Of a stretch of 64,000 nucleotides of DNA, positions 1-9,084 are shown piece by piece. Position 1 is the stretch's first letter, and every line of letters begins with the position of its first letter. The notes under the pieces were generated by a model, which had not been told where the DNA came from, did no database searches, and worked only from the letters and a program-made list of their open reading frames with translations. Source of the stretch: Anaerolineae bacterium (GTDB taxonomy: Bacteria > Chloroflexota > Anaerolineae > B4-G1 > DUEL01); contig JANXCY010000004.1 in the NCBI GenBank assembly GCA_025060135.1, positions 34,341 through 98,340 of the forward strand, written 5' to 3'. A program made the translations under genes and the position numbers.

Positions 1-568
1 AGAAACCGGCGGCGATGGCTTCCCGAATCAGGTCCTCCACCGCGCCCACTTCGGCATCCCGGGCAGTGGCGTATTTTTTGGCGCTTACCTGGAAGTGGTC
101 GCCTTGAATGAAGAGAGGACCCCGGTAGCCCTCCCGAATCGCTGCACCGATAACGACGGTGGCATACTCCGCCGGGCGCTGGTCGGTATAGCCGATTTCG
201 GAGCGAGCGATCTCAAAAATCATCGCGCCGACGTTCCGGGCCCGGGCGGCGCGAAATACCGCACGGGCCATATCATAGGTCAGGGTGCGCAGGTTCATCG
301 CGGGCACGGTCCAGTTCGTGGAGGTCTCGCCGCGCCCCCGGGCCATGTAGAGGTCGTGGATGGAGGCCGGGCGGACTCCCAGGGCCTGGCCCAGTTCCCA
401 GAGCAGTGCGCGGGCGGCGGCCCGTTCCTCCGCCTCCCCAAACACCGCCGCGTAGACCAGACCATCCAGCGCCGGGCCGCGCAGGCGGGATTCGTCCAGG
501 ACCTGGACCTTGTTCCCCTCCATAGCAACGATTCCCTGAAGATCATCCAGCAAAGGTTTGTCGGCCAT
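1..568 (-). CDS. Class II (metal-dependent) fructose/ketose-bisphosphate aldolase family protein. This is the N-terminal part; the C-terminus runs off the left edge.
   Basis: My own reverse translation from the ATG at 568 gives MADKPLLDDLQGIV...WTVPAMNLRTLTYDMARAVF...MIFEIARSEIGYTDQRP...PLFIQGDHFQV and stays open to position 1. It is absent from the ORF track because it is truncated. A purine-rich GGGGGAA lies just upstream of the ATG. Confidence 0.6.
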   Translation of the reverse strand, partial: MADKPLLDDLQGIVAMEGNKVQVLDESRLRGPALDGLVYAAVFGEAEERAAARALLWELGQALGVRPASIHDLYMARGRGETSTNWTVPAMNLRTLTYDMARAVFRAARARNVGAMIFEIARSEIGYTDQRPAEYATVVIGAAIREGYRGPLFIQGDHFQVSAKKYATARDAEVGAVEDLIREAIAAGF

Positions 569-590: not shown

Positions 591-950
591 TTAAGGAATT
601 TGTCGTAGAACTCGTTCGGCGACCTGAATCGCAGCAGTTACGAGAGTCGGCAAGCTCGGGACGTCGGGATCATAGTCACAATAGTTACGCCATATTCTCA
701 AATCGTTGATGTCCTCAGCTATGTCGTTGTATCCCAACTGATACAGATAGTTTCGGAGCATCCGATGGTCTGTTCCGCTTCGGGCCCGTTGAAAGCCACG
801 CATCTCAACGAGTCTCCAGGTATATCCGAAAGCGGCGTAATAAGCCCGACTGACCGTTGTACGACTAGCCGCTTCTTCGGAATAACCTGGGCCGGATTGT
901 CCTTGAAGGTCACGAGCCAAAGCGAGAAATTCGCTCCAGTCAAACGGCAT
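591..950 (-). CDS. HEPN-like small helical protein (119 aa), a candidate RNase-type toxin.
   Basis: Track ORF. It has an SRAYYAAF helix, R57-SGTD-H62 (R-x4-H), and a C-terminal LRIWRNYCDY element resembling the RN-x3-H/Y helix of HEPN folds. It overlaps the upstream ORF by 11 nt. One hand-counted line is about 47% GC. Confidence 0.5.
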   Translation of the reverse strand: MPFDWSEFLALARDLQGQSGPGYSEEAASRTTVSRAYYAAFGYTWRLVEMRGFQRARSGTDHRMLRNYLYQLGYNDIAEDINDLRIWRNYCDYDPDVPSLPTLVTAAIQVAERVLRQIP

Positions 951-1587
951 AAGGACTCTCTGGTGCTTGGAAGTCGGTGGTGAGGAAAATCCACCCCTGG
1001 CAGCCCGTCAACATGTCCCGGTAGGCCGACCGGGTTCGTCGAATTCTTTCCAGAGCCAATTCATCGTATTTCGCAAAACGGGCACACAGGATCAGATACT
1101 CATCCTCTTCCTCGGGATCGTGGTAAAGGGATAAGGTTAACTGGGCATCGGGCAGATGGCTTCGGACCAGACGGGCCACCTCGGGAACCAAATCTATCAG
1201 TTCGGGATAGCGCTGAAGGTAATCCTGAACCTCATTGGTTTTGATGATTTTTAAGCCATGTCTACGAATTTTCTCCAGCGTTTCTTGAATACGGACAAAC
1301 TGCACATACTGCTGAGATAGCAGACGAACATCCGGGAGAAAGGGAGCATCCCAGGTCGGCCAAAATCTTTCTGGGATCAGGAGCGCTGACTGGAAACCGG
1401 CTTTCCCAGCCATTGGATGCTGCACAGATGAAGATACATATAGGCCGGTCAAGGGCACACTCCAAGCGAGATTCTTAAAGGACCCCGGCGCTGCTGGTAC
1501 CTCAACGGTTACCAGCCTGTCCCGTAGAGTATCAAAAGGGCCAGTGAAGTACGCCGTTTCAACCAGATATTCGGTTGAGCAACTCAT
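940..1587 (-). CDS. Hypothetical protein (215 aa) with no domain recognisable by eye. It is a candidate partner of the HEPN-like protein.
   Basis: Track ORF. It lies 2 nt after the upstream gene and overlaps the downstream HEPN-like gene by 11 nt. Amino-acid composition looks normal rather than the Arg/Pro/Gly-rich composition of antisense artefacts. It is low in GC. Confidence 0.55.
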   Translation of the reverse strand: MSCSTEYLVETAYFTGPFDTLRDRLVTVEVPAAPGSFKNLAWSVPLTGLYVSSSVQHPMAGKAGFQSALLIPERFWPTWDAPFLPDVRLLSQQYVQFVRIQETLEKIRRHGLKIIKTNEVQDYLQRYPELIDLVPEVARLVRSHLPDAQLTLSLYHDPEEEDEYLILCARFAKYDELALERIRRTRSAYRDMLTGCQGWIFLTTDFQAPESPYAV

Positions 1588-1589
1588 TT

Positions 1590-2327
1590 TTATGCCTCCG
1601 GCTCAAACATGGCCCTGAGATGGTCAGTAATAGAGCCTTCAAAAATTTCCTCAATCTTGCTATGGGCCTCCTCCAGCCAGTCTATTATCCATTCCGGGGC
1701 CAAAGATTTCGATTGAGCCAGGGAGTATTCAATATCCAGAACGACCGTTGTGGGATCTTCCAAGACGTTGTTCAATTGCACTCTGCATCGGTCACGGCCC
1801 TCGTTTAGAGAGATAAGGCCTCCTACAATGAACGCAAGAATGTGGGAGGCCGGAAGAGGCCCAAAACGGGGTCGGATTTCAAAACAATCTTCTAACCTCT
1901 GCGGAAACTCCGAAATATTTATCTGATTAATGTATCGCAATCCGACAAATTCCAATCCTTCTACTTCTACAACTGCTCTGAGATTAGACCACGCCTTCTC
2001 AATTTTTGAGCGGAAAACAGCCCAGGTGGGATAGGGTTTGAGAGCGTTCACCGTCAAAATGCGAGGGCCCAATTGAACCAGCATCGTTCTGCTTTCCGAG
2101 GAGAGGACCAAAATGGGCTCCGCACCTAGGAAAAAAGCAGGCTGCTCCTGTTCCGATGGAACGCGAACTCCCACTCCCCGAAAGACACGGGTTTCCCGAT
2201 GAGGAAATTCGTCTATAAGCTTCTCGTAGAAAAGGCCAGGGATCGTCACGTCCCAGGGGGTATCCGATGAGAGAACAAATTGACAGACTGCCTCCACAAC
2301 GGGTGGTCGCTGATATTTTCTGCCCAT
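1590..2327 (-). CDS. TIGR04255-like conserved hypothetical protein (246 aa from the ATG at 2327).
   Basis: The N-terminus MGRKYQRPPVVEAVCQFVL and a length near 250 aa match my memory of the TIGR04255 family. A GGAG lies 8 nt upstream of ATG 2327. The longer track start (2372) would overlap the rmlC-like gene. One hand-counted line is about 42% GC. Confidence 0.5.
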   Translation of the reverse strand: MGRKYQRPPVVEAVCQFVLSSDTPWDVTIPGLFYEKLIDEFPHRETRVFRGVGVRVPSEQEQPAFFLGAEPILVLSSESRTMLVQLGPRILTVNALKPYPTWAVFRSKIEKAWSNLRAVVEVEGLEFVGLRYINQINISEFPQRLEDCFEIRPRFGPLPASHILAFIVGGLISLNEGRDRCRVQLNNVLEDPTTVVLDIEYSLAQSKSLAPEWIIDWLEEAHSKIEEIFEGSITDHLRAMFEPEA

Positions 2328-2344: not shown

Positions 2345-2803
2345 TCACTTGATCTCCGGCCAGCGGGTCCAATCGTAGCCGATGGTGGGGTCGTCGTGGG
2401 GGATGCGGCCCTCGTCGGTCCCGTCGTATTCATTAGAAGTGATGTAGAAGATATGAGCGGGGCCCTGAAGGACCCGGTAACCGTGCGCGACGCCCGGCGG
2501 GATTTTCAGGACAACGGGAGGATGGCCGTCTCCCAGCAGGAATTCCTGCAGTTGACCATAAGTTGGGGAGTCGGGGCGGGCGTCGTAGAGGGCCGCCCGC
2601 ACCGTCCCGCAGGCCACGTACCACCAGTCGGTCTGGCGGTGGTGGATGTGCCAGGCCTTGGCCACCCCGGTGTGGCTCATGGTGTGGCTCCACTGGGCAA
2701 ACCCCTCGGCAAAAATGGGGTCGCTGGCCCGGAGGATCTCGCGGAAAAAGCCGCGCTCGTCGGTGTGGGTAACCAGGGATTTGATCTCAACGCCGTGGAT
2801 CAC
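2345..2803 (-). CDS. dTDP-4-dehydrorhamnose 3,5-epimerase-like cupin (short RmlC family).
   Basis: MIHGVEIKSLVTHTDERGFFREI...AKAWHIHHRQTDWWYV...PPGVAHGY is a typical RmlC-like cupin core. Confidence 0.8.
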   Translation of the reverse strand: MIHGVEIKSLVTHTDERGFFREILRASDPIFAEGFAQWSHTMSHTGVAKAWHIHHRQTDWWYVACGTVRAALYDARPDSPTYGQLQEFLLGDGHPPVVLKIPPGVAHGYRVLQGPAHIFYITSNEYDGTDEGRIPHDDPTIGYDWTRWPEIK

Positions 2804-2848
2804 GAGGGAAGCCTCCGGTTAGAGCAGTCTGCCGATGGCGTCCATACA

Positions 2849-2947
2849 CTACCGCAAATCGCCCAGGTGGTTCTGGAGAGTCTCATATACCCGATGGTAG
2901 TCCCCATCCCAGTATCGGTGTACCCGCACTTTCCGGAAACGGGCCAT
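2849..2947 (-). pseudogene. Remnant of a HEPN (DUF86/HepT-type) toxin gene; only the C-terminal R-x4-H helix is left.
   Basis: My own translation gives (GLRIFGHPR)MARFRKVRVHRYWDGDYHRVYETLQNHLGDLR*, matching the RN-x-x-x-H-x-Y helix of DUF86. Stops interrupt the frame just upstream (about 2985). Only about 70 codons of space exist after the MNT gene, whereas a DUF86 protein normally needs more than 110 aa. Confidence 0.45.
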
Positions 2948-3045
2948 CCGCGGATGCCCGAATATCCTCAAACCGGCTCCAGATCAGGGATTCATTCAGG
3001 CCCAAGAAGTGATTGCCTCCTTCAGGGCGGTGCGCACCAGAGGCC

Positions 3046-3430
3046 TCATACCAGGTAACGGGTCCACGTCCAGAATACCTCGCGGACCCGCAACTCCTCG
3101 TCCCGGCTCAGCAGGAGTGGGCCCCGGAAGACGGAATACCGGAAGCCCAGAGGAGCGGCGTTCAGCACCCGGATGTCCACCGGCAGTGAATGCCCGATCT
3201 CCCCGGGGTGCCCGTTCGGCCTCCCCGGCCAGTTCCAGCGCCCGTTCGGTAAAATCTCCACCGTCTTCCAGATAGATGGCGACGTCCACATCGTGGAAGG
3301 GCAGGCCTTCCAGAAAGGAGCCGTAGAGATAGGCAAACCGGACATCCGGCTGGGCCTCCAGAACTCCTTTCAGGGCTGCAACGATAGCCTCCCGCTCTTC
3401 CGGTGTTTTGGGGTGCTGGTGCTCAACCAT
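3046..3430 (-). pseudogene. Minimal nucleotidyltransferase (MNT/MntA-type antitoxin) carrying an apparent frameshift.
   Basis: The ORF from 3430 begins ...FAYLYGSFLEGLPFHDVDVAIYLE (GS-x10-D-x-D NTase motif) and then turns into Arg/Gly/Pro junk. The expected continuation ...IGHSLPVDIRVLNAAPLGFRYSVFRGPLLLSRDEE is in another frame (track ORF 3046..3345). The frames switch near the CCCCGGGG run at about 3205-3235. Confidence 0.55.
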
Positions 3431-3524
3431 CCACCCTACCCTTCTGAATTATATCCCGCTCCGGAAAATGGGCAAGCGCACCCACACGGAGGGAGGCCAG
3501 CAAAAATCTGCGTCCATCTGCGTC

Positions 3525-7962: not shown

Positions 7963-9084
7963 TTATCGTCGTCGGGGTAAGAGAGCCGGATACGCGGTAA
8001 CCAGCCGGTAGGCCTCTTCCAGGTCCTGCCGGGTCAGCAGGCCCAGGAAGATGCCTCCATCCACCACCGGCACCGCTTCGGCTCCGCTCTCGCTGATGCG
8101 CTGCTGGACGTCAAACAGGTCATCGTCCGGGCCAACGACTAGGAACTCCGGTTCCATGACCTGACGGATAGCAATCTGCGGCCCATGCTCTTTGAGTCCC
8201 CGTAGGACACCGGTACGGGTCAACATGCCCACAACTCGTCCCTCTTCGCAGACGGGGAAATCGGACTGGAAGCCCTCTAACATCAGGTCCGCCGCATGGC
8301 CCAACGGGTCTTCTGGATGGACGACCTGAGGGGAATGGGAATAGACCTGGCGGACTCGCAGTCCAGCCAGGGCCGTCCGGAGTTGCACCAGGTGTCCCTC
8401 CTGAGTGGCGCCGGAATAGACAAAGAGGGCCACCAGGATGAGCAGAACGTCCCGGCTGAGGAGGCCCAGTAACCCCAGCATCCATGCCAGGGCCTGTCCC
8501 ACCCGGACGGCCAGCGCGGTGGCGCGGCCATAGGGCATCACCGTGGCCAGGATGGCCCGCAGCACCCGCCCCCCATCCATCGGGAACGCCGGAAGGAGAT
8601 TGAAGCCCGCGAGAAAGAGATTGGTGATCGCCAAATAGGGGAGCAGGTATGACCAGGAGAGGGGCCCGGACGAAGAGAGAGAACGTAGGAAATCCGTCCA
8701 TATCCGTAGGGGAAAGAGGAACACCGTCAGCAGGGCCAGCCCGACGCCAATCACCCCGCTGGTAACCGGACCAGCCAGCGCCATCAACAGTTCCTGGTAG
8801 GGGCGTTCGGGCAGCCGTTCCATCTGGGCCACGCCGCCCAAAGGGAGCAGAGTGATTTCAATAACGCGGCCGCCGAACTGGATGGCCAGCAGGCTGTGGG
8901 CCAATTCGTGGAGGACAACGCAAAGGAAGAGCAAAAGGGTTACCACCACGCCGAACAGAGCTCCTTGGCCCACGTGGGTCTGCCCGCGCCCGAACTGGAC
9001 GGCCGCCCAAAGGAGAACCAGGGGAAAGGTGATGTGGACCCGGACCGGGATACCTTGAATGGTGATCAGTTTCAGGGAACCCAC
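7963..9084 (-). CDS. Site-2 protease (peptidase M50) with tandem CBS domains.
   Basis: It has HELAHSL (HExxH), multiple TM helices, a later NLLPAFPMDGG motif and a CBS pair at the C-terminus. I prefer the GTG at 9084 (AAGGA sits 7 nt upstream) over the track's TTG at 9102. Confidence 0.85.
   Translation of the reverse strand: MGSLKLITIQGIPVRVHITFPLVLLWAAVQFGRGQTHVGQGALFGVVVTLLLFLCVVLHELAHSLLAIQFGGRVIEITLLPLGGVAQMERLPERPYQELLMALAGPVTSGVIGVGLALLTVFLFPLRIWTDFLRSLSSSGPLSWSYLLPYLAITNLFLAGFNLLPAFPMDGGRVLRAILATVMPYGRATALAVRVGQALAWMLGLLGLLSRDVLLILVALFVYSGATQEGHLVQLRTALAGLRVRQVYSHSPQVVHPEDPLGHAADLMLEGFQSDFPVCEEGRVVGMLTRTGVLRGLKEHGPQIAIRQVMEPEFLVVGPDDDLFDVQQRISESGAEAVPVVDGGIFLGLLTRQDLEEAYRLVTAYPALLPRRR

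Follow-up and report, generated by a model that had tools for sequence, protein, structure and literature searches.

The 64,000-nt window analysed here, the whole stretch of Anaerolineae DNA presented above, carries near its left end a compact cassette of three small minus-strand genes, designated A, B and C, at positions 591–2327. That these genes form one unit is strongly supported, because their order and adjacency are conserved across unrelated genomes and phyla. Judged by its composition and distribution, the cassette is a horizontally acquired, self-contained and mobile element maintained under selection, and it is a good candidate for a toxin or defence module. The reading we favour, with confidence somewhat above an even balance, is that C is a HEPN toxin, B its protein antidote and A a nucleic-acid-binding accessory. 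In its full form the cassette is found inserted in type III restriction-modification (R-M) operons. An HEPN module linked to R-M genes is of a type already known; two of the partner families described below are uncharacterised.

Gene A (1590–2327, minus strand, ATG at 2327) encodes a 245-aa protein of the NCBIfam family TIGR04255; gene B (940–1587, minus strand) encodes a 215-aa protein with no annotated family; and gene C (591–950, minus strand) encodes a 119-aa HEPN protein of the PF05168/UPF0332 type, an assignment resting on hidden Markov model (HMM) matches of its homologues and on conservation. The genes are separated by a 2-nt gap (A/B) and joined by an 11-nt overlap (B/C), in agreement with a preliminary description made from the sequence alone, which had also reported the short spacers to the neighbouring rmlC-like and aldolase genes: 17 nt lie between the rmlC stop codon (2345–2347) and the start of A, and 22 nt between the C stop codon (591–593) and the aldolase ATG at 568. 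An alternative upstream TTG start for A at 2372 would run into rmlC. The same description gave the A product as 246 aa, a count that includes the stop codon, and its suggested resemblance to TIGR04255 was borne out (118.6 bits). The cassette has a G+C content of 50.6% (A, 49.5%; B, 51.7%; C, 51.1%) compared to 63.0% for the window and 64–65% for the flanks, and is the lowest-G+C 1737-nt stretch of the 64 kb (mean 63.2%, sd 2.6). G+C at third codon positions (GC3) is 0.48–0.54 in the three genes versus 0.75–0.82 in their neighbours. The values of 42–47% G+C first quoted for the block describe single lines of sequence, while the contrast with the flanks and the view of the block as compositionally foreign both hold. 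There is no tRNA gene within 10 kb of the cassette and no meaningful repeat at its borders; candidate sites for a promoter or terminator of its own were no more frequent than expected by chance.

To follow the three genes in other genomes, HMMs were built for A, B and C and every retrieved locus was annotated with them. Among 49 genomes retrieved with B as the seed, spanning many bacterial phyla as well as four lineages of methanogens, Methanothrix, Methanocalculus, Methanogenium and Methanocorpusculaceae, C directly follows B in 44 and A precedes B in 30. Seeding with A yielded 65 metagenome loci with at least 1 kb of downstream sequence, of which 52 are A-B-C, nine carry A, a divergent B and C, and four carry A alone; in the nine, the gap of about 500 nt between A and C codes for the divergent B subfamily. 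The unit proposed in the preliminary description thus recurs in unrelated genomes, with a B-like gene and C present in 61 of the 65 A-seeded loci. HEPN-seeded contexts gave the same picture, with B upstream of C in 10 of 10 distinct cases. Close homologues of B occur only in Thermoflexales/Anaerolineae assemblies and at the same site (MNT-HepT-rmlC / A-B-C / aldolase-SSB). Homologues of C lie in the A-B-C layout at unrelated sites, namely a Methanothrix pur/icd locus, a his operon beside SNF2/SWIM genes and an S8-peptidase/transposase locus. Homologues of A show the same layout in Thermus contigs, on the pTB1 megaplasmid of Thermus brockianus and in Methylacidiphilum infernorum, and one further A-B-C occurrence is linked to an integrase. 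In all 21 loci compared, the flanks exceed the cassette in G+C, the difference ranging from 3 to 19 points.

These distributions bear on the simplest alternative, that A, B and C are ordinary core genes of a Chloroflexota lineage whose low G+C is incidental. The rmlC / A-B-C / aldolase site is indeed common to at least three related Thermoflexales/Anaerolineae assemblies, and the synonymous divergence (dS) of A from the nearest relative, L004, is close to that of rmlC (0.58 and 0.52, respectively), consistent with vertical descent in the clade. However, other phyla and archaea also carry the cassette, at sites that have nothing in common; it is poorer in G+C than its surroundings at every locus compared, is linked elsewhere to R-M genes, transposases and integrases, and is the most divergent stretch between relatives that are otherwise 84–96% identical. 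On distribution and composition we reject this explanation, to which we give only the slightest probability. Nucleotide identity to L004 is 84–96% for rmlC, 81–90% for A, 62–86% for B and 47–70% for C, and dS is saturated for C. All three genes are under purifying selection in this orphan lineage, with ratios of nonsynonymous to synonymous substitution (dN/dS) of 0.08–0.40; the strongest constraint is on A (0.10–0.13), with values of 0.26–0.40 for B and 0.08–0.34 for C.

Separately, the segment at 591–1100, comprising C and the 3' end of B, is only 47–76% identical to L004. Because identity is low and dS saturated here in comparison with A and rmlC, the HEPN end has apparently either been swapped by recombination or is evolving much faster than the rest.

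B and C form a core of two genes that can be separated from A. B-C pairs lacking A are found among housekeeping genes (e.g., L029, L030, L047, L052, L059 and L061), and the HEPN proteins of such pairs are each nearest to a HEPN protein from an A-B-C locus (88 A-B-C versus 10 A-less sequences, an unbalanced sample), which suggests repeated loss or gain of A. B occurs without C in five loci, and C without a B-type gene was not seen among the annotated loci. The cassette also shows the generic layout of a type II-like toxin-antitoxin (TA) system: small, co-oriented and overlapping genes with B first, a sporadic and mobile distribution, and foreign composition.

A recurrent context is that of type III R-M. 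In M. infernorum the cassette is flanked by genes for an N6_N4 methyltransferase of 942 aa and a ResIII protein of 924 aa, and in L020, L024, L070/71, L084, L090, L098, L104, L152 and others it sits exactly between genes for a Mod protein of about 950 aa and a ResIII protein of about 930 aa. In L024 it is the B-C pair alone that separates the equivalent Mod and Res genes. Searches with Mod and Res by tblastn revealed the same arrangement in many metagenome loci, L073, L075, L076, L082 and L103 among them. Mod and Res are 70–88% identical across samples; PADLOC places Mod in MTase_III (E about 1e-180), while the assignment of Res to REase_III is weak (E about 1e-8). At other loci (L009/26/78, L011–13, L025, L027, L046 and L048) an intact cassette stands beside only a C-terminal fragment of Mod or an N-terminal fragment of Res. 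A set of 36 non-redundant loci supplied 232 neighbouring open reading frames (ORFs), in which only N6_N4_Mtase (7), ResIII (at least 4), Swt1-like HEPN (2) and IS605 OrfB (2) recur; the remainder are housekeeping singletons. The window itself contains no similarity to Mod or Res (best E 0.09), and its cassette is not flanked by them. In our reading, the full form of the cassette is the middle of a five-gene mod-A-B-C-res operon, of which the window copy is an orphan that lost, or never received, mod and res. The most economical history would be horizontal spread of an ancestral mod-A-B-C-res operon, with orphan A-B-C or B-C cassettes left behind as the restriction genes decay. No description of the A-B-C cassette was found in a literature search on type III R-M and HEPN proteins. 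At one of these operons (L090:4363–4698) a second, weak HEPN-like ORF lies between C and Res.

The same survey of neighbours can be read in another way, in which the cassette is a plain addiction module: B-C would be a two-gene TA system that stabilises itself and any adjoining R-M genes, with A as a hitch-hiker or regulator and no role in phage defence. The free-standing B-C pairs among housekeeping genes, the predominance of unrelated housekeeping genes as neighbours in the 36 loci, the persistence of the window copy without an R-M partner, and the failure to find phage-borne copies in a search of IMG/VR for A and B would all be expected under this explanation. It accounts poorly for A, which about two thirds of genomes keep beside B-C and which is under the tightest constraint of the three (dN/dS about 0.1), and for the recurrence of the exact insertion between mod and res, conserved at 70–88% in its Mod and Res proteins across samples. 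Cassettes also reside in defence islands, such as the pAgo/Cas6/VapBC island of Thermus. On this evidence we regard a pure addiction module as unlikely.

C is a HEPN protein by sequence, assignable at the family level. Its 36 close homologues include some labelled HEPN or UPF0332 by their sources, and 20 of the 36 match PF05168 (best E 3.7e-7). The C family profile matches two HEPN chains in the PDB, 9xbd (E 1.2e-5) and 9xbc (E 9.1e-5), both named ‘HEPN domain-containing protein’, with the SRAYYA and RNxxDY segments of C aligned to them, so that profile searching agrees with the HEPN-like character first proposed for the 119-aa protein. Of the hallmarks listed at that time, the family-level assignment stands; the R57-x4-H62 motif does not, as R57 is variable. 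The residues that are invariant in the alignment are R30, R35-AYYA, D61-H62, R88 and D92, and at least 90% of sequences have Y93 (‘WRNxCDY’). In PF05168/AF0298-like HEPN proteins the motif arginine is kept, the motif histidine is lost and an alternative conserved histidine is located more N-terminally (Anantharaman et al. 2013, PMC3710099), a pattern matched by R88 and H62 of C. Several AF0298-like HEPN proteins cluster with R-M operons (PMC3710099), and AbiV, a structural neighbour of AF0298, is a ribonuclease (RNase) by experiment (bioRxiv 10.1101/2024.05.05.592566). Weak relatives of C, 31–35% identical (E 2e-7 to 7e-9), are encoded in two unannotated GenBank phage records (MT836498.1:2036–2368 and CP017837.1:23721–24050).

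The preliminary description recognised no motif in the 215-aa B protein, and indeed Pfam, NCBIfam and PADLOC hold nothing that matches B, nor does the PDB by sequence. Its N-terminal ~85 residues are variable in sequence and length and predicted to be disordered, with predicted local distance difference test (pLDDT) values in the AlphaFold2 (AF2) model below 50 for residues 1–73 and of 80–92 for residues 90–210. The conserved part is the C-terminal ~110 residues (residues ~100–210; 958–1290, minus strand), defined by profile searches and alignments and containing the motifs YLxRYP, L-x-L-x-V-Y-x-DPE-x-ED-E-[YH]-L, ARxxxYD and GW-x-x-LTTDF; Y155, D157, E159, R170, Y174, T203, T204 and D205 are among its many invariant polar residues. 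An exhaustive search with a profile of B returned 1,158 cluster representatives at E<=1e-3, of which 750 reach E<=1e-10, nearly all of them aligning over the C-terminal domain, and the B genes of L014 and L024 code for barely more than this domain. The divergent B subfamily found between A and C (L126, L134, L137, L141, L143 and L145–L149) carries the motif LE(V/I)xxDPE...FDxxWWL...GxLxIxxEF and is detected only by a 50-sequence profile (E 1e-4 to 2e-9). An attempt to place B in a known domain of unknown function through this subfamily (DPE...FD..WWL) failed, as Pfam and NCBIfam returned nothing. B was also considered as a divergent minimal nucleotidyltransferase (MNT), the usual partner of HEPN toxins of the HepT type, and rejected: it has no Polbeta/NTP_transf_2 HMM match, no G[SG]...DxD motif and no nucleotidyltransferase fold among its Foldseek matches, which upholds the earlier remark that the HEPN gene of the cassette is not paired with an MNT gene. 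A Foldseek comparison of the B domain model with the PDB gave nothing convincing, the matches being weak and of the OsmC/Ohr type (best E 2e-3, TM-score about 0.3). The sole convincing structural match to the domain is an unnamed viral protein of 104 aa in BFVD (A0A823A1N8; E 6.3e-6, TMt 0.64, 18% identity); it could be a relative of B carried by a phage, which would make it a candidate mimic of the antitoxin.

A matches the TIGR04255 HMM with an E-value of 3.8e-34 (118.6 bits against a cut-off of 30) over profile positions 1–251 of 252, and its homologues are named ‘TIGR04255 family protein’ by their sources; no mention of TIGR04255 was found in the literature searched. Searches of the PDB with single A, B or C sequences gave no match. 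An AF2 model of A built from 62 sequences (pLDDT 88, predicted TM-score (pTM) 0.85) contains an S1-H1-S2-S3-S4-S5-H2 (beta-alpha-beta4-alpha) topology twice in the chain, and its best Foldseek matches in the PDB are TATA-binding proteins (TBPs), aligned over 226–238 columns with probabilities of 0.97–1.0 and an E-value of 3e-4. Provisionally, the model suggests that A has a double TBP-like topology. Invariant residues of A include E12, C15, D26, E35, Y132, N134, D179, C181, H222, E230 and R238.

These observations have led us to propose a mechanism in which the toxin is the HEPN protein C, probably a dimeric RNase that needs no metal, whose putative site would be formed by R88 and the alternative histidine H62 in place of the canonical Rx4-6H histidine. 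B would be made just before C through translational coupling, and its acidic C-terminal domain would bind and neutralise C; the role of antidote is suggested because of the upstream, coupled position of B, the separable B-C pairs, and the tolerance of orphan B where orphan C was not seen. A would be an accessory that binds nucleic acid or acts as a sensor, and it would target or regulate C, as the fused TBP1-TBP2 domains of RnlA do for the HEPN domain of that protein; RnlA is the closest precedent in mechanism. Inside a mod-A-B-C-res operon the cassette would be triggered by the failure of restriction, either as a back-up defence, like PrrC in the PrrI system, or as an addiction device, and an orphan copy such as that in the window would behave as a chromosomal TA module. 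Toxicity, the RNase activity of C, and the roles of B as antidote and A as sensor are all inferred. A more specific version, which we put forward tentatively and hold to be less probable than its negation, is that A-B-C constitutes a tripartite ‘split RnlA’ defence system, found both in mod-A-B-C-res operons and free-standing in bacteria and archaea. Here the double-TBP-like A would sense either phage nucleic acid (e.g., RNA-DNA hybrids) or a neighbouring type III enzyme that has failed, and would then free the non-canonical HEPN RNase (R88/H62) from its B-domain antitoxin, a protein antitoxin of a new class.

The position of the cassette between mod and res is open to a further interpretation, in which A, B and C are non-toxic accessory subunits of the type III enzyme that tune Mod and Res: C, a dead HEPN, would bind or regulate, B would be an adaptor or modifier, and A a specificity factor binding DNA or a ligand. 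The tuning might involve the sensing of modified DNA, and the cell would not be killed. Placement between the two genes suggests co-assembly, the motif histidine of C is absent, the invariant polar residues of A and B suggest catalysis or ligand binding, and many PF05168-type HEPNs are substrate-binding domains of nucleotidyltransferases (PMC3710099). Against this, purifying selection maintains intact cassettes after decay of Mod and Res or where neither is present, the window and Methanothrix being examples, and B-C pairs stand free, with orphan B but not orphan C occurring, as for an antidote and its poison. We think this interpretation quite improbable.

Returning to the proposal of HEPN toxin, protein antidote and nucleic-acid-binding accessory, a number of findings weigh against it. 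C lacks the canonical Rx4-6H motif, the invariant R88 being followed by N-x-C-D92-Y93 with no histidine, and some HEPNs without the motif histidine may be non-catalytic RNA binders (PMC3710099); because this histidine is missing, C might only bind RNA. The C protein of the window itself gave no HMM match in Pfam, NCBIfam or PADLOC at E<=1, and A, B and C gave none at E<=1 to the models of known anti-phage systems in PADLOC-DB v2.0. Because so many of its invariant residues are polar, B could be an enzyme that modifies C instead of a simple binder. The TBP-like assignment of A depends on a single AF2 model, whose superpositions on TBPs give TM-scores of only 0.26–0.38 and root-mean-square deviations of 9–11 Å, and no internal sequence repeat was found in A (N-terminal half versus C-terminal half by hhalign, probability 0.2%); moreover, E12, C15, D179, C181 and H222 would suit the pocket of an enzyme or a ligand-binding site better than a simple saddle for DNA. 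Since loci were seeded on A or B, the co-occurrence counts are a biased census of C. Finally, no relatives of A or B were found on IMG/VR viral contigs.

Comparison with characterised systems helps to place the cassette. RnlA is a TBP1-TBP2-HEPN protein that needs its TBP1 domain to bind substrate (PMC8266594), and the RnlAB/LsoAB systems resemble the cassette in combining two TBP-like domains, a HEPN domain and a small HEPN-inhibiting protein, the part proposed for B, as well as in their sporadic, horizontal spread. The two differ in that the domains of RnlA are fused, whereas A and C are separate genes; in that the RnlA HEPN is of the RNase LS family with a canonical Rx4-6H motif, whereas C is of the PF05168 type without the motif histidine; in that rnlB follows the toxin gene, whereas B precedes C; and in that RnlAB is not embedded in R-M operons. 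No PDB chain of RnlB was recovered as a structural match to B, and RnlA was outside the top 50 Foldseek matches of A. Compared with the TBP superfamily, the model of A shows the S1-H1-S2-S3-S4-S5-H2 order twice and has TBPs as its best PDB matches, at low TM-scores; it differs in lacking sequence similarity to TBP, in the acidic, cysteine and histidine residues conserved on its sheet, and in a gene context of conflict systems rather than transcription. According to Brindefalk et al. 2013 (PMC3597702), the TBP domain occurs as a single copy in all the other cases characterised.

HepT-MntA offers a parallel in gene arrangement, a small HEPN toxin gene preceded and overlapped by the gene for its neutraliser, the role proposed for B. 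It is likewise abundant in thermophiles and archaea, and likewise has a tyrosine (Y93 in C) beside the HEPN arginine motif. In contrast to MntA, B is not a nucleotidyltransferase, and the cassette usually has A as a third gene. The genuine MNT/HepT pair found 500 bp away is of different families (PF18765/PF01934). The PrrC-PrrI system (EcoprrI) shares with the cassette the insertion of a HEPN gene in an R-M operon, and a second line of defence acting when restriction is disabled has been proposed for at least 16 HEPN clades (PMC3710099). PrrC, however, is an ABC-ATPase-HEPN fusion encoded in a type Ic hsd operon and silenced by R-M proteins, whereas the host operon of the cassette is type III, its HEPN is a stand-alone protein of about 120 aa with B and a TIGR04255 protein as partners, and the cassette survives without R-M genes. 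C itself resembles the AF0298/AbiV-like HEPN-T proteins, in which the motif arginine is kept, the motif histidine is absent and an invariant histidine is located N-terminally (H62 in C). AF0298 (2hsb) was not recovered by the C sequence profile; AbiV is neutralised by RNA, in the manner of a type III-like TA system, and not by a protein; and neither AF0298 nor AbiV has been reported with a TIGR04255 or B-type partner. A 2013 census of HEPN proteins noted in general terms only that PF05168 HEPNs cluster with R-M operons (PMC3710099).

Several individual loci depart from the common arrangement. At L028:5509–6357 an in-frame fusion joins the first residues of A (MARHYKNPPVVEA) to a B domain with no HEPN gene following, and a tyrosine recombinase gene lies directly upstream of this decayed cassette. 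B-domain genes without a HEPN partner were also found at L033:409–1703 and L031:5983–6297, one with an N6_N4 DNA methyltransferase gene directly after it and the other situated among ORFs resembling phage tail or fibre proteins. At L151:2669–3356, what looks like a frameshift has divided A into two ORFs, B and C being intact; this locus is beside a large-terminase gene and may be a prophage edge. An unrelated 223-aa ORF with no PADLOC match occupies the position of A at L068:5013–5684, and a 949-aa DUF3987/NrS-1 primase-polymerase gene lies just upstream of a Methanothrix cassette (L065:1614–4460). On pTB1 (L150; NZ_CP016313.1 195136–209864), genes for a PAZ-domain argonaute (pAgo), a DNA methylase, a CopG/VapC pair, a SWIM protein and cas6 are found within 15 kb, and the HEPN ORF (8285–8692) is intact yet absent from the PLSDB gene table.

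The rmlC-like cupin gene (2345–2803, minus strand; PF00908, E 7.5e-25) has native G+C (GC3 0.82) and encodes a protein 95–97% identical to those of relatives. On the other side, the 5' part of a class II fructose-bisphosphate aldolase-like gene (1–568, minus strand) extends beyond the window; by tblastn its ORF is 88% identical over 189 aa to the aldolase of L001, and the aldolase gene of relatives carries PF01116. Beyond rmlC lies the MNT/HepT type VII TA pair (2831–3430, minus strand; MNT, 3430–2996; HepT, 3005–2831), preceded by a promoter-like TTGCCC-16-TATAAT sequence at 3475–3448. The preliminary description called the pair decayed. This is correct for HepT, of which only aa 1–20 and aa 96–135/138 remain, as judged by tblastn with the HepT proteins of relatives, ~75 codons having been deleted near 2954; the MNT ORF is intact (Polbeta PF18765, E 5.4e-8). 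The deletion is specific to the window, HepT being intact in L001, L003 and L004. In L001, a Thermoflexales metagenome-assembled genome (JACIWQ010000002.1), a VapBC-like pair encoding an 82-aa protein and a PIN protein, along with a duplicated 99-aa rmlC fragment, lies between rmlC and the cassette (L001:4184–5164); therefore, the same junction has taken up TA cargo more than once.

If the proposed reading is correct, the cassette would provide the first functional context both for TIGR04255, an uncharacterised family, and for the B domain, which is represented by more than 1,000 clusters but by no model in Pfam or NCBIfam. The partners known for HEPN toxins would be joined by a protein antidote that is not an MNT, and it would mean that the combination of TBP-like and HEPN domains in RnlA also exists as separate genes. 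It would further define a widespread five-gene variant of type III R-M, mod-A-B-C-res, as a candidate for layered restriction and abortive infection. For genome annotation, the cassette accounts for an island of three low-G+C genes that recurs in thermophiles, in methanogens and in numerous lineages without cultured members.

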